Below are positions 4,851 through 24,492 of a stretch of 30,400 nt of DNA, piece after piece (positions within the stretch are counted from its first letter, which is position 1; each line of letters opens with the position of its first letter). The position numbers and the translations under genes were made by a program. This DNA comes from an uncultured Gammaproteobacteria bacterium (GTDB lineage: Bacteria > Patescibacteriota > Microgenomatia > Daviesbacterales > UBA10151). The stretch spans positions 1 through 30,400 of the forward strand of contig CAYHYM010000009.1 of assembly GCA_964360965.1 (NCBI GenBank). Direction: 5' to 3'. The notes beneath the pieces were generated by a model. It ran no database searches and was not told where the DNA came from. It was given only the letters and a program-made list of their open reading frames with translations.

Positions 4851-4903
4851 GCAAGTTTTGGTGCAGGCTTATTTGCTTCCGTATCTGTTGTCCAACTCAA
4901 TTC

Positions 4904-6397
4904 ATGAAGATATTTGTTATAACGCTATTTCTCCTCTCATTTTTTTTAGTATTCAACTCCCCAGTCAAAGCCATAGTTGATCCCCTCTCTGTTCCTAACA
5001 ATAAATTTGGCATTCATATTATTCAAGCTACTCCTGATGAATCATCTCCGGCGGCCCAACTAGTCAACACCAACGGTGACTGGGGCTATATTACTTTTTT
5101 AATAGAATCCAAGGATAGAAATGAAAGTAAATGGCAGGAGTTTTTTAATGATCTAAGAAGAAAACATCTAATTCCGATTGTTAGGTTAGCCACCAAACCA
5201 GTTAATACTCACTGGGAAAGACCTTATGAAAAAGAGGGTGAAGCTTGGGCCCACTTTTTAGACAAATTAGTCTGGCCTACCAAAAACAGGTATATCATTA
5301 TCTATAATGAGCCAAATCATGCTCAAGAATGGGGAAATTTTACAGATCCTATTTCTTATGCCCATATTTTAAATGACACCATAGATACTCTAAAGAAAAA
5401 GTCTCCGGATTTTTATGTCTTAAATGCCGGTTTTGATGCTTCAGCCCCTCATCAACCACCTAGATTTTTTGATGAAGTAGTTTTTTTACAGGAAATGGAA
5501 AAGGCAGTACCGGGAATTTTTGAAAAATTAGATGGGTGGGTGTCACATTCCTATCCAAATCCGGAATTTTCCGGTTCTCCGGATGCTTTGGGGCGAGGCA
5601 CTGTTCGAACCTACGTTTGGGAACTACAGCAACTGCGTAATTTGGGTGTTTCGAAAAATTTGCCTGTTTTTATCACAGAAACCGGCTGGAAACATGCTGA
5701 AGGATTAACTTTTGAGCCTAGATTCCCTGCAGCAGATACTGTGGCCAGATATTACCAACAGGCTTTTGAAAATGCCTGGAACAGTTCCAGGATCATCGCC
5801 GTGACTCCATTTTTATTAAGCTATCAAGAGCCTTTATTTGCCCATTTTTCCTTTAAAGGACCCACCAATTCCGGACTATATTATCCTCAATATGACACCA
5901 TCAAAAACATGCCTAAAATTTCCGGCCAACCCATCCAGGAAAACAAGGCTACTTTAATCAAAGGTGAGGTCTTTTCATCCATTGTTTCAGGAGAAACTTA
6001 TACCATTTTTCTAACTTTCAAAAATAGCGGCCAATCAATCTGGAATGATGGCTCGCCTCGCTCCTCGCCTCGCGGCGAAGCGGGCGCGGGCGGAGCGGGG
6101 AAAAGGGTGGCTTTGGTGCCAATTGAAAGTGGCAGAGAATTGGGCATAGAACAGATATCCATTCCAGATGGGGTGCAAATTGAACCGGGCAAAGAATATA
6201 CCTTCCAAATTCAACTGAAAGCTCCGCTGAAGGGTATTTTTAAGGTTAGTTTGAATCTGTTTACCGGCAGCCACCCGTTTGATTCAAAACCACCGGTTAT
6301 TTTGCGCCTTTTAACTAAATTAAAATGGAGAAATTCTCCGGCCGGAGAATATATTTTAAGAACTATCGGCACCATAGGTGAATCTACTCAATTATAA
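4904..6397 (+). CDS. secreted clan GH-A-like glycoside hydrolase with C-terminal Ig-like domain
   Basis: Signal peptide MKIFVITLFLLSFFLVFNSPVKA. IIIYNEPNH (acid/base-type NEP motif) and VFITETGW (nucleophile-type TE motif). C-terminal beta-rich region carries a GC-rich insert. Confidence 0.5.
   Translation: MKIFVITLFLLSFFLVFNSPVKAIVDPLSVPNNKFGIHIIQATPDESSPAAQLVNTNGDWGYITFLIESKDRNESKWQEFFNDLRRKHLIPIVRLATKPVNTHWERPYEKEGEAWAHFLDKLVWPTKNRYIIIYNEPNHAQEWGNFTDPISYAHILNDTIDTLKKKSPDFYVLNAGFDASAPHQPPRFFDEVVFLQEMEKAVPGIFEKLDGWVSHSYPNPEFSGSPDALGRGTVRTYVWELQQLRNLGVSKNLPVFITETGWKHAEGLTFEPRFPAADTVARYYQQAFENAWNSSRIIAVTPFLLSYQEPLFAHFSFKGPTNSGLYYPQYDTIKNMPKISGQPIQENKATLIKGEVFSSIVSGETYTIFLTFKNSGQSIWNDGSPRSSPRGEAGAGGAGKRVALVPIESGRELGIEQISIPDGVQIEPGKEYTFQIQLKAPLKGIFKVSLNLFTGSHPFDSKPPVILRLLTKLKWRNSPAGEYILRTIGTIGESTQL
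6051..6100. repeat. GC-rich element (SPRSSPR..GEAGAGGAG family) in frame in the hydrolase gene
   Basis: GCTCGCCTCGCTCCTCGCCTCGCG+GCGAAGCGGGCGCGGGCGGAGCGGGG. Both blocks recur exactly in uvrA at 20723-20793 on the other strand. Confidence 0.8.
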
Positions 6398-10498: not shown

Positions 10499-10563
10499 TG
10501 CCGTCTAAAGACGAGCCTCGTCCGCCTTTGGCGAGACGGGTCGAGGCTGGCCACAAGGATCGA
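10499..10563. repeat. intergenic GC-rich compound hairpin (CGCC-AAAGG-CG family)
   Basis: GCCTCG...CGAGGC outer arms with CCGCCTTTGGCGAG core. The reverse complement resembles 353-384. Confidence 0.55.
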
Positions 10564-16665: not shown

Positions 16666-16749
16666 AATGTCATCCCAGAGAATACCGGGATCCATAAATA
16701 TTGTAGCAATTTTATTATGTCATTGCTAGCGAATGATGGAAAGCTAAAA

Positions 16750-16782
16750 TTTAGCTTGACACCTGAGAGGTGTAAACGTAAA
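16750..16782 (+). repeat. REP-like element upstream of the RAYT ORF
   Basis: TTTAGCTTGACACCTGAGAGGTGTAAACGTAAA with hairpin ACACCT-GAG-AGGTGT at 16759-16773. Exact inverted copy at 26126-26158. Confidence 0.85.
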
Positions 16783-16791
16783 ATAAATTTA

Positions 16792-17448
16792 ATGCCTGGA
16801 AGAAAAACTGTTTTTGAGAATGGATATTTTTATCATGTCTATAACCGGGGCTCTGAAAAAAGGGATATTTTTATAAAACCGCAAAATTATCAAAGATTCA
16901 TAAAAACTATGTACTATTATCAGTACGAGGGACCAAAACTAAGGCTTTCCCTACTAAATCAGGACGGATTCCAAAATTTTAAACCGGATCCCAGTAAGAA
17001 ATTAGTTGAAATTATCTGTTATTGCTTAATGCCTAACCACTTTCACATTCTAATAAAACAACTCAAAGAAAATGGAATTTCTAAATTTATTAGTCAATTA
17101 AGTAATAGCTACACCAAATATTTTAATACCAAATATAAACGTGTAGGAGCTTTATTCCAGGGTGTATTTCAGGCAGTTATTATTGAATCCGATGAACAGT
17201 TCATTCATACCTCCAGATATATTCATTTAAACCCGTCAGTATCAACCTTGGTAGAGAACCCTGCCAATTGGCCTTGGTCCTCTTATACCGAGTATGTTGA
17301 TAAGAAAAAGGGTATTTGTGTTAAAGAACCAATAATGAGTCATTTTCCTTCTGTGGAAGCTTACAAAAAATTTGTCTTGGATCAGCTTGATTACGGGAGG
17401 ATTCTCGAAATCTTAAAACACGGAGCCATTGATTATGATTACACCTGA
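16792..17448 (+). CDS. IS200/IS605-type Y1 (HUH) transposase, REP-associated tyrosine transposase (RAYT)-like
   Basis: YHVYNRG, the HUH motif MPNHFHILIK, and the catalytic-Tyr motif SRYIHLNP. Start set to ATG 16792, because the upstream TTG extension is made of REP sequence. The TGA stop lies inside a REP hairpin. Confidence 0.8.
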   Translation: MPGRKTVFENGYFYHVYNRGSEKRDIFIKPQNYQRFIKTMYYYQYEGPKLRLSLLNQDGFQNFKPDPSKKLVEIICYCLMPNHFHILIKQLKENGISKFISQLSNSYTKYFNTKYKRVGALFQGVFQAVIIESDEQFIHTSRYIHLNPSVSTLVENPANWPWSSYTEYVDKKKGICVKEPIMSHFPSVEAYKKFVLDQLDYGRILEILKHGAIDYDYT

Positions 17449-17457
17449 GAGGTGTAA
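17441..17457 (+). repeat. REP-like hairpin overlapping the RAYT stop codon
   Basis: ACACCTGAGAGGTGTAA is identical over 17 nt to 16759-16775 and in the same orientation. Confidence 0.8.
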
Positions 17458-17560: not shown

Positions 17561-17579
17561 GCTGACACCTGAAAGATGG
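17561..17579 (+). repeat. degenerate REP-like copy
   Basis: GCTGACACCTGAAAGATGG compared with GCTTGACACCTGAGAGGTG. The second arm is decayed. Confidence 0.4.
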
Positions 17580-18179: not shown

Positions 18180-21100
18180 TTATAGTATCTTTGCCAAATA
18201 TTGCCCTGTATAGGAGGATTTGATTTTGGATATATCTTTGGGGGTGCCTTCTGCAATAACTTGTCCGCCTTTATCCCCACCTTCCGGGCCTAAATCTATT
18301 ACCCAATCGGTATTTTTAATCACATCAAGATTGTGCTCTATAATCACCACAGTATTTCCATAGTTTACCAGCTTCCTTAAGATGGTTAATAACCTTTCTA
18401 TATCAGCAAAATGTAAACCGGTGGTGGGTTCGTCCAAAATATAAAGAGTGTGACCAGTTGGACGCTTAGATAATTCAGCAGAAAGTTTAATCCTTTGTGC
18501 CTCTCCACCAGACAGCGTGGGAGCTGGTTGGCCCAATTTTATATATCCCAATCCCACATCATTTAGTACTTGCAGTTTATTTTTGATATTGGGAATATTT
18601 TCAAAAAACTTTAAAGCTTCCTCAACAGTCATGTCCAAAACTTCAGAAATATTTTTATCCTTAAAGTGAATTTCCAAAGCCTCCCTGTTGTAGCGGGCAC
18701 CGTTGCAAGCCTCACAAGTCACATAAACATCCGGCAAAAACTGCATTTCAATTTTGAGCTGCCCTTCCCCTTCACAAACCTCACACCTTCCACCTTTGAC
18801 ATTAAAGGAAAACCTGCCTGGTCCATAACCCCTAATTTTAGCTTCAGTACTTTGGGCAAATAGGTCTCTGACAAAGGTAAAGGCTTCTGTATAGGTGGCC
18901 GGATTTGAGCGGGGAGTCCGGCCTATTGGTGATTGGTCTACCAAAACCACTTTATCCACATACTCTACCCCCTCCAGTTCTTTAAAAGCCCCTGGTCTTT
19001 CCTTGGATCTATAAATTTTTTGAGCTAACGCCTTATATAAGATGTCGTGAATTAAAGTAGATTTTCCGGATCCTGAAACCCCTGATATGGCTATAAACTG
19101 CCCTAAAGGAAAATCCACATTGATATTTTTTAAATTGTGTTGAGAAGCACCAAGAACCTTCAAAACATGATTGTCATTCCCGCGCAGGTCATCGACTCCG
19201 AGGTCGCTCAGACTCGAGGAGCGGGAATCTATTTTAATATTATTTATGGATCCCGTATCCCTTCGGCCTCGCTCAGGGCGGGCAAGTTCAGGATGACCGT
19301 GAACAGTCACTTTTTTCTTACCTGATAAATACTGTCCAGTTAAAGATGTAGTACTTTTTTTAATCTGATCCGGAGTGCCTGTGGTTACTATCTCCCCACC
19401 ATGTTCACCAGCTCCTGGCCCAATTTCAATTAATAGATCTGCATTCTCCATCATCTCTGCATCATGCTCATTAACTATCACTGTATTTCCCAAATCTCTT
19501 AATTTTTTTAAAGTTTCAATTAATCTTGAGTTATCTCTTTGGTGTAAACCAATAGAAGGCTCATCTAAAACATACAAAACTCCGGATAAACCCGAACCAA
19601 TTTGGGAGGCCAGCCTGATTCTTTGTGATTCTCCCCCGGCTAAGGTCATAGCAGCGCGATCCAGCGTTAAATAATCCAAACCAACATCAATTAAGAACTT
19701 AACTCTGGCTTGGATTTCTTTTAAAATAGGTTTGGCAATTTGAGTTTCACGATCATTTAAAATAGATTCTATCACTTCACTACGTTTCGCTCCAGAATGA
19801 CTATTCCCCAATCTTTTAATCCATTCCAAAGCCTCTTTAATAGATTGTGTCACCACTTCTGCAATATTTAATCCATCAATGGTTATTGACAAGGCTTCAT
19901 CTTTAAGTCTTGCTCCATGACACTTAGGACAAATCTCTTTAACCATATATTTTTCTATTTCCCTTTTCACATAATCAGATTCGGATTCTTGATATCTTTG
20001 TTTTAGGTATGAAACCAAACCTTGAAAGCTAGATTTAAAATGAGTCCATCTTCCCTCTCTGTTTCTTCCTTCCACTCTAAATTCTTCGTCCCCAGCACCA
20101 TTAAGTAGCACATTTCTGGCTTTCTCAGATAATTCACCCAGTCTGGTATTTAAATCAAAACCGTAAACTTTGCCTACTGACTGAATAAGTCTTGAGAACC
20201 AGGTTTCATGAGTGGCTAACTTTTGCCATGGTAAAATTCCACCTTCTGCAATAGATAAAATGGGGTTTAAAACCATTTCCGGATCAATTTCCAAAAGTGA
20301 TCCTAAACCATGGCAGGTAGGACAAGCTCCATGAGGAGAATTAAAAGAAAATAGTCTTGGTTCCACCTCGGATAAGGCAATATTGTCAACCGGACAGGCA
20401 AATCTTTCAGAATAAAGATGATCGTCCATTTTCTTGGGATTTTGGGGAAATTCTAAAGAAGCGTCCAGGACTTCAGAAACAATCACGGATCCTTCACCTA
20501 ATTTGAGCGCTGTCTCGATGGATTGGGAGAGCCTGTTTATAATGTCATTCCCGCGCATGCGGGAATCCAATTCCGAACGTGACTTTGTTAATTGGATCCT
20601 CCTCGAGTCTGAGCGACCTCGGAGTCGAAGACCTGCCTTCGCAGGGATAACAGACTTATCCAATATGAGTCTGTCCACTACTGCATCGATAGTATGCTTA
20701 TTAGTTTTAATCAACACTAAATCCCCCGCTCCGCCCGCGCCCGCTTCGCCGCGCCCTGCGTCGCCGGAGGCGCGAGGCGAGGAGCGAGGCGAGTCTGTTA
20801 AGTCTCTAATTTGTCCATCAACCCTAACCTTTGAAAAACCTTTTTTCCTCAAATCTTCAAAAAGTTGGAAATATTCTCCTTTTCTGTCTTTAACCACAGG
20901 AGCCAAAATCATTATTCTTCTCGAAGACCCTGAGCGAGACTTCGACGGTGAGTCTTTCGACCCTGAGCTCAAGACCGAAGGGCTCAGTCGAACCGCGTAG
21001 CGAGTCGAAGGGTTCCCTACCACTTGTTCCACAATTTGTTCTACTGACATTCTACTAATCTCCCTTCCACAAATTGGACAATGGGGATGGCCAACCCTGG

Positions 21101-21443
21101 CAAATAAAAGCCTTAAATAATCATAGACCTCAGTAGTTGTTCCCACAGTAGAACGTGGATTATGTGAAACACCTTTTTGGTCAATAGAGATGGCCGGGGA
21201 TAAACCCTCAATATAATCAACATCAGGCTTGTCCATTACCCCTAAAAACTGCCTGGCATAAGCAGATAAAGATTCCACATATCTTCTTTGACCTTCTGCA
21301 TAAAGGGTATCAAAAGATAAAGAAGACTTGCCGGAACCGGAAATCCCCGTTAAAACCACCAACTTGTTCTTGGGAATTTCCAGATCAATATTCTTGAGGT
21401 TATGCTCTCTCGCCCCTTTTATAATAATCTTATCTATAGCCAT
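18180..21443 (-). CDS. uvrA: excinuclease ABC subunit A, expanded by in-frame insertions
   Basis: GISGSGKSSL and GVSGSGKSTL Walker A motifs. Two LSGGE signatures (LAGGESQRIRLA, LSGGEAQRIKLS). Zinc modules CPxC...CxxCxG. 1087 aa. Confidence 0.95.
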   Translation of the reverse strand: MAIDKIIIKGAREHNLKNIDLEIPKNKLVVLTGISGSGKSSLSFDTLYAEGQRRYVESLSAYARQFLGVMDKPDVDYIEGLSPAISIDQKGVSHNPRSTVGTTTEVYDYLRLLFARVGHPHCPICGREISRMSVEQIVEQVVGNPSTRYAVRLSPSVLSSGSKDSPSKSRSGSSRRIMILAPVVKDRKGEYFQLFEDLRKKGFSKVRVDGQIRDLTDSPRSSPRASGDAGRGEAGAGGAGDLVLIKTNKHTIDAVVDRLILDKSVIPAKAGLRLRGRSDSRRIQLTKSRSELDSRMRGNDIINRLSQSIETALKLGEGSVIVSEVLDASLEFPQNPKKMDDHLYSERFACPVDNIALSEVEPRLFSFNSPHGACPTCHGLGSLLEIDPEMVLNPILSIAEGGILPWQKLATHETWFSRLIQSVGKVYGFDLNTRLGELSEKARNVLLNGAGDEEFRVEGRNREGRWTHFKSSFQGLVSYLKQRYQESESDYVKREIEKYMVKEICPKCHGARLKDEALSITIDGLNIAEVVTQSIKEALEWIKRLGNSHSGAKRSEVIESILNDRETQIAKPILKEIQARVKFLIDVGLDYLTLDRAAMTLAGGESQRIRLASQIGSGLSGVLYVLDEPSIGLHQRDNSRLIETLKKLRDLGNTVIVNEHDAEMMENADLLIEIGPGAGEHGGEIVTTGTPDQIKKSTTSLTGQYLSGKKKVTVHGHPELARPERGRRDTGSINNIKIDSRSSSLSDLGVDDLRGNDNHVLKVLGASQHNLKNINVDFPLGQFIAISGVSGSGKSTLIHDILYKALAQKIYRSKERPGAFKELEGVEYVDKVVLVDQSPIGRTPRSNPATYTEAFTFVRDLFAQSTEAKIRGYGPGRFSFNVKGGRCEVCEGEGQLKIEMQFLPDVYVTCEACNGARYNREALEIHFKDKNISEVLDMTVEEALKFFENIPNIKNKLQVLNDVGLGYIKLGQPAPTLSGGEAQRIKLSAELSKRPTGHTLYILDEPTTGLHFADIERLLTILRKLVNYGNTVVIIEHNLDVIKNTDWVIDLGPEGGDKGGQVIAEGTPKDISKIKSSYTGQYLAKIL
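19173..19297. mobile_element. TIR MITE-like element in uvrA with nested insertions
   Basis: The GTCATTCCCGCGCAG..GCGGGAATC end is split by a 33-nt element at 19188-19220. The GGATCC..TCAGGATGAC end contains a CTGAGCG/CCGAAGG-type segment at about 19254-19287. Confidence 0.65.
20544..20651. mobile_element. TIR MITE-like element in uvrA with one nested 33-nt insertion
   Basis: Intact end GTCATTCCCGCGCATGCGGGAATCCAATT. The other end, ATTGGATCC|CTGCCTTCGCAGGGATAAC, is split by TCCTCGAGTCTGAGCGACCTCGGAGTCGAAGAC (20600-20632). 108 nt, 36 codons. Confidence 0.75.
20723..20793. repeat. GC-rich element (SPRSSPR..GEAGAGGAG family) in frame in uvrA
   Basis: Reverse complement is CTCGCCTCGCTCCTCGCCTCGCG + 21 extra nt + GCGAAGCGGGCGCGGGCGGAGCGGGGG. 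The 23-nt and 26-nt blocks are identical to 6052-6100. Confidence 0.8.
20920..21013. repeat. GC-rich composite element (CCTGAGC / GTCGAAGG family) in frame in uvrA
   Basis: Contains CCCTGAGCGAGAC, CCCTGAGCTCAAGACCGAAGGGCTCAG and GCGAGTCGAAGGG. Encodes about 30 residues (STRYAVRLSPSVLSSGSKDSPSKSRSGSS) where canonical UvrA has a short linker. Confidence 0.65.
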
Positions 21444-21461
21444 AGTTTATAATCCCTTCGG

Positions 21462-21571
21462 GTCCGAGCTCTTCGAGTCCGAGCTCTTCGAGTCCGAGCC
21501 TCAGAGTCGAGGACCTCAGAGTCGAGGACCTCAGGGTCGAAGACCTGAGCGACCGAAGGGAGTCGAAGGAC
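21462..21571. repeat. GC-rich ~15-nt-period tandem array in the uvrA 5' region
   Basis: Units all start GTC(C)GA: GTCCGAGCTCTTCGA x2, GTCCGAGCCTCAGA, GTCGAGGACCTCAGA, GTCGAGGACCTCAGG, GTCGAAGACCTGAGCGACCGAAGGGA, GTCGAAGGAC. Confidence 0.8.
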
Positions 21572-21682
21572 ACTAAAATTACCGCACTATTGTAAACCAT
21601 TTTGCAAGATTTTTAAAGGATTAATATGTTAAAATCTGTTCAAAATGAAGATAGAACAATATTTACTACAGAATCCAATACT

Positions 21683-21724
21683 TTAAATACTTAATTCCTT
21701 AATCTGATCTCTTAATCTGGCCGC
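21683..21724 (-). pseudogene. recoded duplicate of the uvrB 3' end (13 codons + stop)
   Basis: Encodes AARLRDQIKELSI*, identical to the uvrB C-terminus at 21759-21800. It has 9 nucleotide differences, all synonymous. It is out of frame with uvrB and lies behind stop codons. Confidence 0.7.
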
Positions 21725-21758
21725 CCAACGGGCGAGCCTCGCCTTAGATTAGCTACTT

Positions 21759-23771
21759 TTAAATACTTAACTCTTTTATTTGATCTCTAAGGCGGGCTGC
21801 TTCTTCAAAATCTAATATTTCTGCTGCTTGGTGCATTTGTTCCTCTAAATTTCCGATCATTTTCTGCCTCTCATTAACTGGTATATCTTCTATAGTTAAT
21901 TCTTTTTTACCCAATTTTTCCTCTATTTCTTCAACTTTCTCAATAAGTCTTTCCCTCAAAGCTTTTTCAATGCTTCTGGGTTTTATGTTATGCTTTTTAT
22001 TATATTCCATCTGGTACTTTCTTCTTCTGTCTACCTCCTCAATTGCTGACTTCATAGATTTGGTCATATTATCTGCATACATAATTACTTGCCCCTTAAC
22101 ATGTCTGGCAGCCCTGCCCATGGTTTGGATCAAAGAAGTTTTGCTTCTTAAAAAACCCTCTTTATCCGCATCCAAAATAATTACCAAAGTTACTTCAGGC
22201 AAATCCAATCCTTCCCTTAAAAGATTAATTCCCACAATCACATCATATTCACCTAATCTTAAAGACTGGAGAATATCAGATCTTTTTAAAGTTTCTATAT
22301 CAGAATGTAAGTAATTTACTTTAATGCCTCTCTCTTTTAGATAATCAGTCAAATCTTCTGCCATTCTTTTGGTAAGTGTAATAATTAGCACCCGTTCTCT
22401 ACGTTCCACCCTTTTTTCCACCTCAGAAATGATATCCTGAATCTGTCCTTGTGTAGGTCTGACAGAAACTTGAGGATCAAAAATGCCTGTAGGTCTGATA
22501 AGCTGCTCTGCTATCCCACACCCGGTGTGGGTTTGAGTTGACACACCGGGTGTGTGTCCTGAACAGGCCAAACTTATCTCATACTCATCCGGAGTTGCTG
22601 AAGCATAAATTACCTGATTAATTTTTCTCTGAAACTCATCAAATCTTAAGGGTCTATTATCCAAAGCAGAAGGAAGCCTGAAACCAAACTCAATCAAAGT
22701 TTCTTTTCTGGAACGGTCTCCGTTGTACATCCCACGCAGTTGGGGCAAAGTGATGTGGGACTCATCAATAATCAATAAAAAATCTTCAGGAAAATATTCC
22801 ATTAAAGTATACGGAGGGTCACCTTCTTTTCTGCCTTCAAAATATCTGGAATAATTTTCTATCCCATTACAATAACCGAATTCCTTAATCATCTCCAGAT
22901 CATAATAAGTTCTTTGTTCCAGTCTCTGAGCTTCTACTAATTTGCCTTGTTTTCTTAAATCTTTAATCCTAAATCTTAAATCTTCTTCTATTTGTTTTAT
23001 AGCAGGCAACATTCTGGACTCCGGAGTAATATAGTGTTTGGCAGGATAGATGGTTAAGGTTTGAGGGGTTGGGGTAGCAACACCAGTCAAAGGATCCAAG
23101 TGCGAAATTCTCTCTATCTTATCTCCTAAAAATTCTACTCTGACAGCTTGTTCCAAATAAGCAGGGAAAATATCTATAGTGTCTCCCTTAACTCTGTAGG
23201 TAGATCTTTTAAAATCCAAGTCATTTCTTGAATAAAACATCTTTTGAAGCATTTTAAGAATCGTCTGGAAACCTGTTCTTACCCCCATCTTTAGCTCTAA
23301 AATTGCCCCGCCATATTCAGCGGGAGATCCCAAATTGTAGATACAAGAAACTGAGGCGACCACTATCACATCTTTTCTGGTCATTAAAGAAGTCGTTGCA
23401 GAAAGGCGCAATTTTTCTATCTCTTCATTAATATTGGTCTCTTTTTCAATATATGTATCTGATTGGGGTACATAAGCCTCAGGCTGATAATAATCATAAT
23501 AAGATACAAAATACTCGCAAGCATTTTTGGGAAATAAAGACCTAAATTCTTGAGCTAGCTGTCCTGCTAAAGTTTTATTGTGGGAAATAACCAAAGTGGG
23601 TCTTTGCACTTTCTGGATCACATTGGCCATGGTAAAGGTTTTACCGGATCCAGTCACACCCAGTAGTACCTGATGTTCTTGTCCAGAATTAAGCCCGGAA
23701 ACAAGCTTCTCAATAGCTTGAGGTTGGTCACCTGTAGGTTTGAATTCAGAAATAATCTTAAATTTTGCCAT
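21759..23771 (-). CDS. uvrB: excinuclease ABC subunit B
   Basis: FKPTGDQPQAI, Walker A GVTGSGKTFT, DESH box (IIDESHITLPQ), helicase motifs, and a C-terminal UVR domain (LDFEEAARLRDQIKEL). Start set to ATG 23771 (MAKFKIISEFKP). The track start at 23780 is a TTG. Confidence 0.95.
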   Translation of the reverse strand: MAKFKIISEFKPTGDQPQAIEKLVSGLNSGQEHQVLLGVTGSGKTFTMANVIQKVQRPTLVISHNKTLAGQLAQEFRSLFPKNACEYFVSYYDYYQPEAYVPQSDTYIEKETNINEEIEKLRLSATTSLMTRKDVIVVASVSCIYNLGSPAEYGGAILELKMGVRTGFQTILKMLQKMFYSRNDLDFKRSTYRVKGDTIDIFPAYLEQAVRVEFLGDKIERISHLDPLTGVATPTPQTLTIYPAKHYITPESRMLPAIKQIEEDLRFRIKDLRKQGKLVEAQRLEQRTYYDLEMIKEFGYCNGIENYSRYFEGRKEGDPPYTLMEYFPEDFLLIIDESHITLPQLRGMYNGDRSRKETLIEFGFRLPSALDNRPLRFDEFQRKINQVIYASATPDEYEISLACSGHTPGVSTQTHTGCGIAEQLIRPTGIFDPQVSVRPTQGQIQDIISEVEKRVERRERVLIITLTKRMAEDLTDYLKERGIKVNYLHSDIETLKRSDILQSLRLGEYDVIVGINLLREGLDLPEVTLVIILDADKEGFLRSKTSLIQTMGRAARHVKGQVIMYADNMTKSMKSAIEEVDRRRKYQMEYNKKHNIKPRSIEKALRERLIEKVEEIEEKLGKKELTIEDIPVNERQKMIGNLEEQMHQAAEILDFEEAARLRDQIKELSI
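22515..22558. repeat. pair of REP-like hairpins inside uvrB
   Basis: CCCACAC-CCG-GTGTGGG (22515-22531) and TTGACACAC-CGG-GTGTGTGTC (22538-22558). Encodes SGHTPGVSTQTHTGCG in frame. Confidence 0.7.
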
Positions 23772-23809: not shown

Positions 23810-23839
23810 TTGACATCTTCGGGTTGTGTTTGGTAATGT
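23810..23839 (+). promoter_or_regulatory. candidate lexA promoter
   Basis: TTGACA (23810-23815), an 18-nt spacer ending in TGg, then TAATGT (23834-23839). Confidence 0.4.
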
Positions 23840-23874
23840 TTAAGGTATGGTTCGACTTCGCTCACCATTATAAT

Positions 23875-24492
23875 ATGCCAGTTACCCTTTACAGAAGACA
23901 AAAACAGATTTTAGATTTTATCAAACAATATGTTGATAAATATGGTTATTCCCCTACTTTAAGCGAGATTGCGAAATCAATCGGAGTTTCTTCTTTGGCC
24001 ACAGTTCACGAACATTTAGGAGCTTTATCTAAAAAAGGAGTCATTAAGAGATTCGAAGGGGCTGTTAGGGGAATTGAGGTTTTAGATCAACAGATATCGC
24101 AGGCTTTAAGAGGGGTAGAACTGCCCATTTTGGGCTTTATTGCAGCAGGCGCTCCCATCATGCCCTATACAGACCCTGATGCATTATTAAATATCCCACC
24201 GTCTATGATAACAGGCAAGAGAAGGTCATATGTACTGCAAGTTAAGGGTGATTCTATGATTGAGGATGGAATTTTGGATGGGGATTTCGTCATTATTGAG
24301 GAACAGACAGAGGCCCGTGACGGTGATATCGTGGTGGCGCTTTTGGAAAATGGCCTGGCCACTTTAAAAAGATTCTTCCGTGAAGCAGGCAGGATCAGGC
24401 TGGAACCTGCCAATGCCGCCATGAATCCAATTTATACAGTAGATGTAAAAATCCAGGGCAAATGTGTAGGGGTAATTAGAAGGTTCAATTAA
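23875..24492 (+). CDS. lexA: LexA repressor (S24 peptidase)
   Basis: N-terminal wHTH (LYRRQKQILDFIKQYVDKYGYSPTLSEIAKSIGV), Ala-Gly cleavage site (FIAAGAP), catalytic Ser (VKGDSM) and Lys (ATLKRF). Start at ATG 23875 gives a canonical N-terminus. Confidence 0.9.
   Translation: MPVTLYRRQKQILDFIKQYVDKYGYSPTLSEIAKSIGVSSLATVHEHLGALSKKGVIKRFEGAVRGIEVLDQQISQALRGVELPILGFIAAGAPIMPYTDPDALLNIPPSMITGKRRSYVLQVKGDSMIEDGILDGDFVIIEEQTEARDGDIVVALLENGLATLKRFFREAGRIRLEPANAAMNPIYTVDVKIQGKCVGVIRRFN

Follow-up and report, generated by a model that had tools for sequence, protein, structure and literature searches.

The uvrB gene of the groundwater bacterium studied here ends twice. In a stretch of 30,400 nucleotides (contig CAYHYM010000009.1; the whole stretch that was analysed is called the window), the codons for the C-terminus of the repair protein UvrB are followed, on the same strand, by a second and silently recoded version of the same C-terminus. 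We consider it probable that the first version, the one in use, is an imported surrogate end that displaced the resident uvrB end, and that this happened within a recurrent class of insertions; no particular enzyme is implied by this statement. The closest UvrB homologues (81-85% identity) place the host in Candidatus Daviesbacteria, a lineage of the Candidate Phyla Radiation (CPR)/Patescibacteria. CPR bacteria have tiny genomes, and their gain and loss of genes is poorly understood.

On the minus strand, the live uvrB end (21800-21759, GCAGCCCGCCTTAGAGATCAAATAAAAGAGTTAAGTATTTAA) reads, with the two codons before it, GAA GAA GCA GCC CGC CTT AGA GAT CAA ATA AAA GAG TTA AGT ATT TAA, and the distal copy (21724-21683, GCGGCCAGATTAAGAGATCAGATTAAGGAATTAAGTATTTAA) reads GCG GCC AGA TTA AGA GAT CAG ATT AAG GAA TTA AGT ATT TAA. 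Both translate to AARLRDQIKELSI and a stop, the last 13 codons of uvrB plus its stop codon. The copies differ at 9 of 42 nucleotides, in 7 codons, and 100% of the differences are synonymous. An earlier note, made from the letters alone, had described this recoding, and both the sequence and a repeat search confirmed it; the search returned the pair as a 43-nt direct repeat with 79% identity and a spacing of 76. The longest identical run common to the two copies is 13 nt. The spacer between them (aagtagctaatctaaGGCGAGGCTCGCCcgttgg, 34 nt) puts the distal copy into frame +1, where, as the earlier note had also stated, it sits behind stop codons; its frame lacks an ATG, GTG or TTG start. Among the window's open reading frames (ORFs) of at least 80 amino acids, uvrB alone has its C-terminus re-encoded downstream. 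In simulations, 9 random substitutions kept the peptide and the stop in 0-2 of 200,000 trials (about 1e-5 or less). Together with a live end that appears foreign (see below), this upholds the argument that the silent-only pattern did not arise by neutral decay of a simple duplication. Observations that would count against two separate origins were looked for as well: the distal copy belongs to no other ORF, no nonsynonymous difference exists and the similarity is not part of a low-complexity repeat.

The peptide AARLRDQIKELSI, or a near variant of it (R/K, L/I, or changes in the last two residues), is the usual UvrB C-terminus in Daviesbacteria, and two lineages can therefore encode the same peptide with different codons. 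Each copy would have evolved as a working uvrB end in a separate Daviesbacteria lineage before the two met, and the differences would all be silent because both were selected as working ends in their own lineages until the event. The earlier note had likewise proposed that the two ends derive from different uvrB alleles, with a replacement end displacing the ancestral one; codon types, a mosaic test, the native context of displaced ends and about 20 doubled loci, all described below, bear this out. Since both ends encode one peptide, protein look-ups cannot tell the uvrB alleles apart. An exact-protein look-up found the window's UvrB on one contig only, L001, a second contig of 6.9 kb that was assembled independently from Hainich groundwater and is identical to the window in this region; the same look-up recovered no empty-site or excised allele of the window lineage.

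We then compared the uvrB-uvrA region in relatives. Loci (L numbers) were fetched around close UvrB homologues and by one metagenome scan with an alignment of the C-terminal segment, and were screened for doubling by a six-frame scan for UVR-end peptides followed by a nucleotide-level (blastn) search. The doubling recurs in about 20 loci: a live end with one or two same-strand copies downstream, here called orphans, was found in L082, L086, L088, L091/L092, L093, L094, L097, L099 and L114, and a live end with its orphan or orphans also in L115, L118, L119, L125, L128, L137, L148 and L166/L167. About one in four of the sampled Daviesbacteria loci carries insertions at the uvrB end. The start-to-start spacing of the uvrB ends ranges from 64 to about 1460 nt, and the inserts measure 22-1420 nt. 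As a control, 80 uvrB loci from other phyla were examined and none had a doubled end; this set came from a contig scan with whole UvrB that was saturated by the universal YYDYYQPE motif, its relatives reaching at most 59% identity. In a second control, no gene except uvrB had a doubled end among 301 ORFs of at least 150 amino acids in Daviesbacteria-type loci.

The inserts vary in content. Between the copies of the window (34 nt) and of L115 (22 nt) there is nothing but a hairpin. Elsewhere the cargo includes HicA with a partner (L114), DUF2283 (L125, L118, L099), DUF4258 (L137, L097, L088), DUF5678 (L128), a RelE-like nuclease (L099), a CopG antitoxin (L086) and an MqsA/YokU-like protein (L097, L088). 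In L082, L093, L094 and L166 the gene of a Y1 transposase, similar to those of IS200 and to REP-associated tyrosine transposases (RAYT; REP, repetitive extragenic palindrome), lies with its own hairpins between live and orphan ends. Arrays with two orphans occur in L166, in the order live end, hairpin, orphan 1, gene, Y1 element, orphan 2, and in L099/L148. In the cargo loci L086, L099, L114, L118, L125 and L137 the repeat starts with 23-62 nt of perfect identity, which a diverged end follows. Some orphans have decayed: that of L088 is truncated, that of L093 contains stops and that of L137 runs on. Searches with Pfam and the ORF list detected no tyrosine or serine recombinase domain in any ORF between or beside the uvrB ends tested, a search that in the window covers 30 kb and leaves room for a trans-acting integrase elsewhere in the genome.

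A mini-cassette is present at one position in the window (76 nt), in L115 (64 nt) and in L166/L167 (65 nt), with boundaries that were set by aligning the three carriers with cassette-free relatives (alignment A2). L115, a contig of 1.02 Mb, reads GCTGCC CGT CTT AGA GAC CAA ATA AAG GAA CTG AGT AAT TGA aGGCGAGGCTCGCCCttttaGGGCGGCC AAA CTC CGT GAT CAG, and L166/L167 reads GCGGCT CGC CTT AGA GAC CAA ATA AAA GAA CTA AGT GAT TAA aGGCGAGGCTCGCCCcctttgGGGCGGCC AGA ATC AGG GAT CAG. In all three, the insertion lies immediately 3' of GCNGCY; its first codons are CGY CTT, and its last six letters are an unvarying GCGGCC. The live genes of the carriers keep clade-specific Ala-Ala codons, namely GCAGCC in the window and L083, GCTGCC in L115, L129 and L103, and GCGGCT in L166. 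There is thus no target-site duplication: the right-hand GCGGCC is invariant and not copied from the clade-specific target. A test for a miniature inverted-repeat transposable element was negative, as the cassette ends (CGCCTTAG... and ...GGGCGGCC) do not form inverted repeats and the clade-specific target is not duplicated. In a UvrB tree the carriers are scattered; the window groups with the empty-site locus L083, L166 with loci that hold other cargo, and L115, at a distance, beside the empty-site locus L103. With spacers of 34, 22 and 23 nt (window, L115 and L166), the frame of the orphan with respect to uvrB and the hairpin changes from carrier to carrier. The orphans of the three carriers differ mainly by silent multi-base swaps (Leu TTA/CTC, Arg AGA/CGT/AGG, Ser AGT/TCT), as one would expect of resident ends that had been displaced independently. 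Two forms are supported by two assemblies each, that of the window through L001 and that of L166 through L167. UvrB identity between the lineages that hold the cargo-free unit is under 77-81%. We infer that this unit moves, or has moved, between lineages without a visible recombinase.

Which copy is the resident one was assessed by downstream context and by a mosaic test. In the empty sites L083, L103, L108 and L111, a conserved block ahead of uvrA (the pre-uvrA block) lies 13-16 nt after the live stop; in L092 and L097 it lies exactly 13 nt after the orphan stop. The orphan of L092 and L097 keeps the native downstream context and is therefore the former resident end, the new end and the cargo having entered upstream of it. 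For the mosaic test, the terminal ~200 nt of uvrB were divided into windows of 39 nt and nucleotide identity was determined in each, the final window being the duplicated segment. Successive values were 82, 85, 97, 95 and 69% for L115 against its nearest relative L112; 87, 72, 87, 79 and 59% for L166 against L113; 69, 74, 90, 79 and 46% for L166 against L082; and 77, 72, 82, 87 and 72% for the window against L083. Carriers compared with one another gave 79-85% in the final window, equal to or above the windows upstream.

The codons of the two ends point the same way. Live ends of relatives matched the orphan at 28-31 of 39 positions and the carrier's own live end at 18-24 in the case of L166; the corresponding values were 27-31 and 23-27 for L115, and 28-31 and 25-30 for the window. 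Against its closest relative L083, the window's distal copy is identical at 31/39 and its live copy at 28/39 positions. The codon choices of the distal copy (AGA TTA ... ATT ... GAA) are L083-like, and the live copy is of the CGY-CTT ... ATA type that is common to the live ends of L115 and L166 (31-33/39). At diagnostic codons, the orphan agreed at 17/17 between L115 and L129 (AAACTCCGTGATCAGAT), at 17/17 between L166 and both L086 and L092 (AGAATCAGGGATCAGAT) and at 15/17 between the window and L083. The codon-usage likelihoods of the two copies relative to the window's genes (-14.6 versus -13.3) are too close to indicate polarity. As judged from these alignments, an imported live end and a resident orphan are supported, with a signal that is strong for the class and modest for the window taken alone.

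We therefore suggest the following course of events for the window, which remains, as said, the reading that we hold to be probable. A 76-nt unit would have entered the UVR-motif coding sequence directly behind the resident Ala-Ala codons, bringing the last 11 codons with a stop, the conserved hairpin and a terminal GCGGCC. The UvrB protein would have stayed full length and unchanged in sequence, and the host's own last 11 codons and stop would have been pushed 76 nt downstream, where they would now form an untranslated orphan. Translation of the orphan is unlikely because it has no start codon, because the spacers of 34, 22 and 23 nt change the frame and because other orphans are truncated, contain stops or run on. 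The mosaic pattern supports a window uvrB that is a chimera, with a resident body through the Ala-Ala codons and a presumably imported end. The unit would be the smallest, cargo-free member of a class that lands at the Daviesbacteria uvrB 3' end, always with a surrogate end, whose larger members bear toxin-antitoxin-like genes or a Y1 element and may be stacked in arrays; the unit itself would be horizontally mobile. The empty site would be expected to read GAAGAAGCAGCC joined to AGATTAAGAGATCAG, and a circle or excision junction GGGCGGCC joined to CGCCTTAGAGAT.

Several observations weigh against this course of events. The window pair lacks the 23-62-nt perfect block of the larger cargo classes, and the insertion classes may therefore not share one mechanism. 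No recombinase is encoded in or beside the mini-cassette unit, and the cassette hairpin differs from those that flank local Y1 genes. Polarity in the window is modest (31 versus 28 of 39 against L083) and is ambiguous in L086. The nearest relative is 87% identical in UvrB, and no true empty-site allele of the window lineage was seen among the loci; nor was a donor found with a native CGY-CTT end and hairpin and no orphan. Finally, the live ends of the carriers differ by 15-21%, which speaks against very recent transfers, and still the orphan of the window is fully intact.

The hairpin stems AGGCGAGGCTCGCCC and GGGCGGCC are invariant (23 nt) in the window, L115 and L166/L167, and the loops vary. 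The earlier note was right that the 34-nt spacer contains a GC-rich hairpin but had quoted its palindrome from the plus strand; on the uvrB strand it is GGCGAGGCTCGCC. This palindrome (GGCGAG-G-CTCGCC, 21731-21743) overlaps an 8-bp bulged stem, GGC(T)CGCCC / GGGCGGCC (21730-21738 and 21719-21726), and RNA folding of both the window and the L115 sequence gave this stem, GGC(U)CGCCC/GGGCGGCC. Since GCGGCC pairs into the stem, it is a piece of the hairpin and not of the displaced gene end. The extent of the distal copy had accordingly been read too generously: the peptide match holds, but its first two codons, GCGGCC, are part of the inserted hairpin. The z-scores of the fold are unremarkable (-1.2 to -2.0). 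A terminator scan of the window returned 0 terminators, and no U-tract follows 3' of the hairpin; in L115, CTTTTA follows the first hairpin stem. A role at transcript 3' ends is plausible.

Relatives of the GC-rich hairpin occur elsewhere in the window, with 12 matches at up to 3 mismatches versus 1.7 expected. One of these hairpins stands 4 nt behind tRNA-Leu and another 19 nt behind tRNA-Gly, and the latter (AGCGAGGTTCGCCCaaaGGGCGACC, 352-376) has the same two-part architecture with a compensatory change from GGC..GCC to GGT..ACC. The 7-mer CCCGCTC that ends tRNA-Gly (329-335) is repeated directly after this hairpin (377-383), which could be a miniature doubling of the tRNA end or chance. 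A further intergenic GC-rich structure at 10503-10552, with an outer stem CCGTCT/AGACGG around GACGAG-C-CTCGTC and CGCC-TTT-GGCG, resembles the uvrB spacer hairpin in architecture. In L088, a Daviesbacteria locus from the same groundwater sample, an orphan is cut off after ...MKQAAELLDFEEA and followed by several hairpins (4874-4990), among them the exact 13-mer GGCGAGGCTCGCC.

As to what moved the unit, three mechanisms were weighed, all of them compatible with the import of a surrogate end. With a fairly low probability, the unit may be a Y1/HUH mini-element: its hairpin would serve as a substrate like those of REP sequences or palindrome-associated transposable elements (PATEs), and an enzyme acting in trans would cut single-stranded DNA 3' of GCNGCY and paste a donor segment, which runs from within a uvrB end across the hairpin to GCGGCC, after the same motif in a new uvrB. 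The constant insertion 3' of GCNGCY, the terminal GCGGCC and the lack of a target duplication, which together are typical of how the IS200/IS605 family inserts, fit this idea. So do the invariant 23 nt of stem with varying loops, the excess of hairpin relatives (12 versus 1.7 expected) and the recurrence of Y1_Tnp genes in the hotspot (L082, L093, L094 and L166; also L110, L143/L147 and the window). The window's Y1 enzyme is homologous to the Y1 enzymes between the uvrB ends of L082, L093, L094 and L166 (tblastn against the L082 enzyme: E = 4.5e-38, 38% identity) and is an unproven candidate for the trans-acting factor. However, the hairpins that flank Y1 genes, ACACCTGAGAGGTGT in the window (copies at 16759-16773, 17441-17455 and 17565-17579) and AGGTGCG...CGCACCT in L082, are unrelated to GGCGAGGCTCGCC, and a search of the window for L082-type element ends gave chance-level short matches only. 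The unit has a single hairpin, at its 3' end, and not the cognate pair of subterminal hairpins of the IS200/IS605 type. Moreover, the toxin-antitoxin cargo classes lack obvious terminal hairpins, and the Y1 family occurs at unrelated loci in Curtissbacteria and Gottesmanbacteria. The family is abundant in Microgenomates at large (7627 matches at E <= 1e-20), and in Daviesbacteria the Y1 gene usually lies between uvrB and uvrA or just past uvrA.

It is rather unlikely that the insertions are decayed integrative elements, although their geometry would suit this origin. An integrase-bearing element or phage with its attB site in the uvrB 3' end would have left attL/attR remnants that accreted in tandem, and the window would hold only the att-proximal ends. 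Elements in the 3' ends of housekeeping genes are indeed flanked by direct repeats of 8-60 bp that include the gene end, and they form cis-mobilizable elements (CIMEs) and accrete (PMC5704250). The perfect blocks of 23-62 nt with which the repeat opens in L086, L099, L114, L118, L125 and L137 agree with this, as do the arrays of L166 and L099/L148. On the other hand, no insert or flank tested contains a tyrosine or serine recombinase, the inserts measure merely 22-1420 nt, and the window's junctions share no identical core, just GCAGCC versus GCGGCC. Three lineages would also have to have decayed to one remnant of 64-76 nt. In a viral collection we found neither the hairpin nor a Daviesbacteria-type uvrB end, only weak generic matches to the UVR domain.

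Recombination without a dedicated enzyme is improbable to a similar degree. Here, DNA uptake would be followed by homologous exchange within uvrB and illegitimate joining at GCNGCC, or a looped-out circle would reintegrate by a single crossover, with the orphans as homology arms in later rounds of spread. Several pairs share identity blocks of at least 23 nt, which fits the minimal length for RecA-type exchange; L118 and L137 have diverged homology on both sides of the identical block, GCNGCC/GCGGCC provides microhomology at the right junction, and no recombinase was found. But the left junction falls on one codon boundary in all three carriers, where homologous exchange should vary, and flanks that are 75-85% identical between lineages are poor substrates for such exchange. 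We rank a site-specific process, by a Y1/HUH enzyme in trans or a recombinase not seen, above homologous or illegitimate recombination after uptake.

Two further explanations would do away with the import altogether. A local tandem duplication whose distal copy was kept by selection is very improbable, whether that copy were still in use (through frameshifting, read-through or reversible excision) or acted in the uvrB 3' untranslated region as an RNA element. In its favour, the window's orphan is intact, the carriers' orphans differ mainly by silent swaps and GCGGCC pairs into the hairpin; but the orphan has no start codon, the spacers of 34, 22 and 23 nt show no conserved recoding geometry, the orphans of L088, L093 and L137 are truncated, contain stops or run on, the live end looks foreign by its mosaic pattern, and the fold z-scores stay between -1.2 and -2.0. 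An assembly artefact, in which two strain variants of the uvrB end were joined in tandem, has next to no probability: the source is a metagenome and the copies share a 13-nt identical run, but this run is below the usual assembly k-mers, L001 is identical though separately assembled, L115 is a 1.02-Mb contig, L166 and L167 are separate assemblies, and the ~20 doubled loci stem from different studies.

Three other candidates were rejected. An independent small ORF has no start codon, and its frame through the hairpin is not conserved. Programmed frameshifting or read-through is incompatible with spacers of 34, 22 and 23 nt, which do not keep the frame, and uniform neutral decay of a local duplication with silent-only differences and a live end that is foreign in the mosaic test. 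The doubling in the window is neither an artefact, nor a functional small ORF, nor a decaying local duplication.

A bolder form of the preferred reading can be offered as speculation. The unit might be an autonomous gene-end cassette, an undescribed kind of mobile DNA in which 11 surrogate codons and a stop are joined to a single hairpin that a protein recognises, and which a trans-acting Y1/HUH enzyme would insert at a single nucleotide position within the UVR-motif codons; it might serve as an entry module through which toxin-antitoxin and transposase cargo accumulates behind uvrB, with the orphans as an ordered record of invasions.

That integrating DNA replaces the 3' end of a gene is familiar from islands at tRNA genes and from elements at ribosomal-protein, guaA and trmE genes. 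Islands and prophages at tRNA and transfer-messenger RNA (tmRNA) genes, with which the earlier note had compared the doubling, carry a copy of the gene's 3' part, and the displaced 3' fragment marks their far end. The uvrB insertions differ from them in lacking an integrase, in that the window's "island" is 34 nt of non-coding DNA and in that uvrB is a protein-coding target; in a protein-coding target the copies can differ at silent sites, and the pair is therefore so conspicuous. With IS200/IS605, PATE and REP/RAYT elements the unit has in common that DNA with a hairpin enters 3' of a short fixed motif and leaves the target unduplicated; Y1 genes in the hotspot and in the window, and GC-rich hairpin relatives at several intergenic sites, add to the likeness. 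Unlike these elements, the unit bears just one hairpin, at one end, which is not that of the local Y1 genes, and it contains 36 nt of coding sequence. We know of no surrogate gene end described for this family. The minimal mobile elements of Neisseria are variable cassettes between conserved genes that are exchanged by transformation and homologous recombination. They share with the uvrB insertions the small recombinase-free cassettes with varied cargo at one site between conserved genes (here uvrB and uvrA), but a duplicated or replaced flanking-gene end is not known from them. Mobile endonuclease ORFs of fungal mitochondria, such as that at Allomyces atp6, insert near the gene's 3' end with a foreign copy of the C-terminal coding sequence. 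There, too, a hybrid gene results whose C-terminal segment is imported, and the native end is left displaced downstream; in contrast, no endonuclease gene is present here and the target lies on a bacterial chromosome, not in an organelle.

Integrative and mobilizable elements (IMEs) and CIMEs integrate in the 3' ends of the housekeeping genes rpsI, rplL, rpmG, guaA and trmE and accrete in tandem; uvrB is not among the target genes listed in the same work (PMC5704250). As with these elements, the insertions in the window, L115 and L166 lie inside the 3' end of a conserved gene, supply a replacement end and leave the displaced end behind as a direct repeat; L166 and L099/L148 are tandem arrays, and toxin-antitoxin cargo is common. 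Unlike IMEs and CIMEs, they have no integrase in insert or flank and measure 22-1420 nt as opposed to several kb or more, the window form has neither cargo nor an identical core repeat, and the host is a CPR bacterium. A literature search on attachment sites in uvrB and on hotspots of toxin-antitoxin genes in CPR bacteria yielded no description of such insertions. What is unusual here is the combination of uvrB as the target, a CPR host, tiny inserts, no recombinase and, most of all, a cargo-free unit of 64-76 nt, a surrogate coding end with a hairpin, that three distant lineages carry at one and the same nucleotide position.

A specific and recurrent landing site is thus found in the last ~25 codons of uvrB. 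Because each insertion brings its own gene end, an important repair gene is not inactivated by small selfish modules. If what moves the unit were identified, be it a Y1 transposase, an integrase or uptake with recombination, the known repertoire of mobile DNA would gain a mechanism. Searches for orphan gene ends are simple, and the orphans offer a dated, ordered insertion record; they can also mislead gene callers and strain-level analyses. Silent-only differences, in turn, are a useful general signature that separates an imported replacement end from a local duplication.

The features of the window are listed in Table 1.

Table 1. Features at and around the doubled uvrB end; coordinates are those of the window.
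Feature	Coordinates	Strand	Remarks
uvrB coding sequence	21759..23771	minus	670 aa from ATG 23771; ORF opens at TTG 23780; stop 21759-21761
Resident Ala-Ala codons GCAGCC	21795..21800	minus	putative insertion point immediately 3'
Mini-cassette, 76 nt, probably inserted	21719..21794	minus	surrogate uvrB end, spacer and hairpin, own GCGGCC
Live end RLRDQIKELSI and stop, probably imported	21759..21794	minus	CGC CTT AGA GAT CAA ATA AAA GAG TTA AGT ATT TAA
GC-rich hairpin region	21719..21744	minus	AGGCGAGGCTCGCCC-gtt-GGGCGGCC
Orphan, probably the displaced resident end	21683..21718	minus	AGA TTA AGA GAT CAG ATT AAG GAA TTA AGT ATT TAA; no start, frame +1
Unmatched DNA between orphan stop and pre-uvrA block, 63 nt	21620..21682	minus	
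Conserved pre-uvrA block	21575..21619	minus	kept in >20 loci; promoter-like hexamers; marks native context downstream of uvrB end
uvrA	18180..21443	minus	Pfam UvrA_DNA-bind, UvrA_inter, ABC_tran
Y1 (IS200/RAYT-like) transposase gene	16717..17448	plus	Pfam Y1_Tnp; 4.3 kb from uvrB end
lexA	23824-24492		divergent from uvrB

The uvrB product matched the Pfam families UvrB_inter, Helicase_C, UvrB and UVR. Daviesbacteria UvrB proteins are 654-703 amino acids long, and their length varies by an internal insertion (at about residues 405-430 in the window, LACSGHTPGVSTQTHTGCGIAEQ; also in the uvrB of L088) and not at the C-terminus.

The pre-uvrA block contains a palindrome, TTGCAAA-N4-TTTACAA (21590-21607), of which the window has one copy only. 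Palindrome and hexamers may form a candidate operator, with LexA encoded divergently from uvrB. The start of the block (CCTTTAAAAATCTT) occurs twice in L092 (4627, 5200), L082 (6067, 6649) and L156 (529, 936), one of the occurrences lying inside cargo, which points to earlier layers of insertion that have decayed further. The stretch of 63 nt that separates the orphan stop from the block had no blastn match in any related locus and is possibly what remains of older cargo; its plus strand holds a 21-codon ORF with a Shine-Dalgarno-like AGGA upstream. A search of the window against Rfam returned nothing relevant, the sole match being a sub-threshold chance hit of a microRNA model in the uvrA leader. 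Within this leader, at 21456-21546 and just upstream of the uvrA start at 21443, lie 15-nt tandem repeats, three of CTTCGGGTCCGAGCT and three of CCTCAGAGTCGAGGA; the two repeat blocks are mutually inverted and form a long imperfect hairpin, and the same repeats are found in L001.

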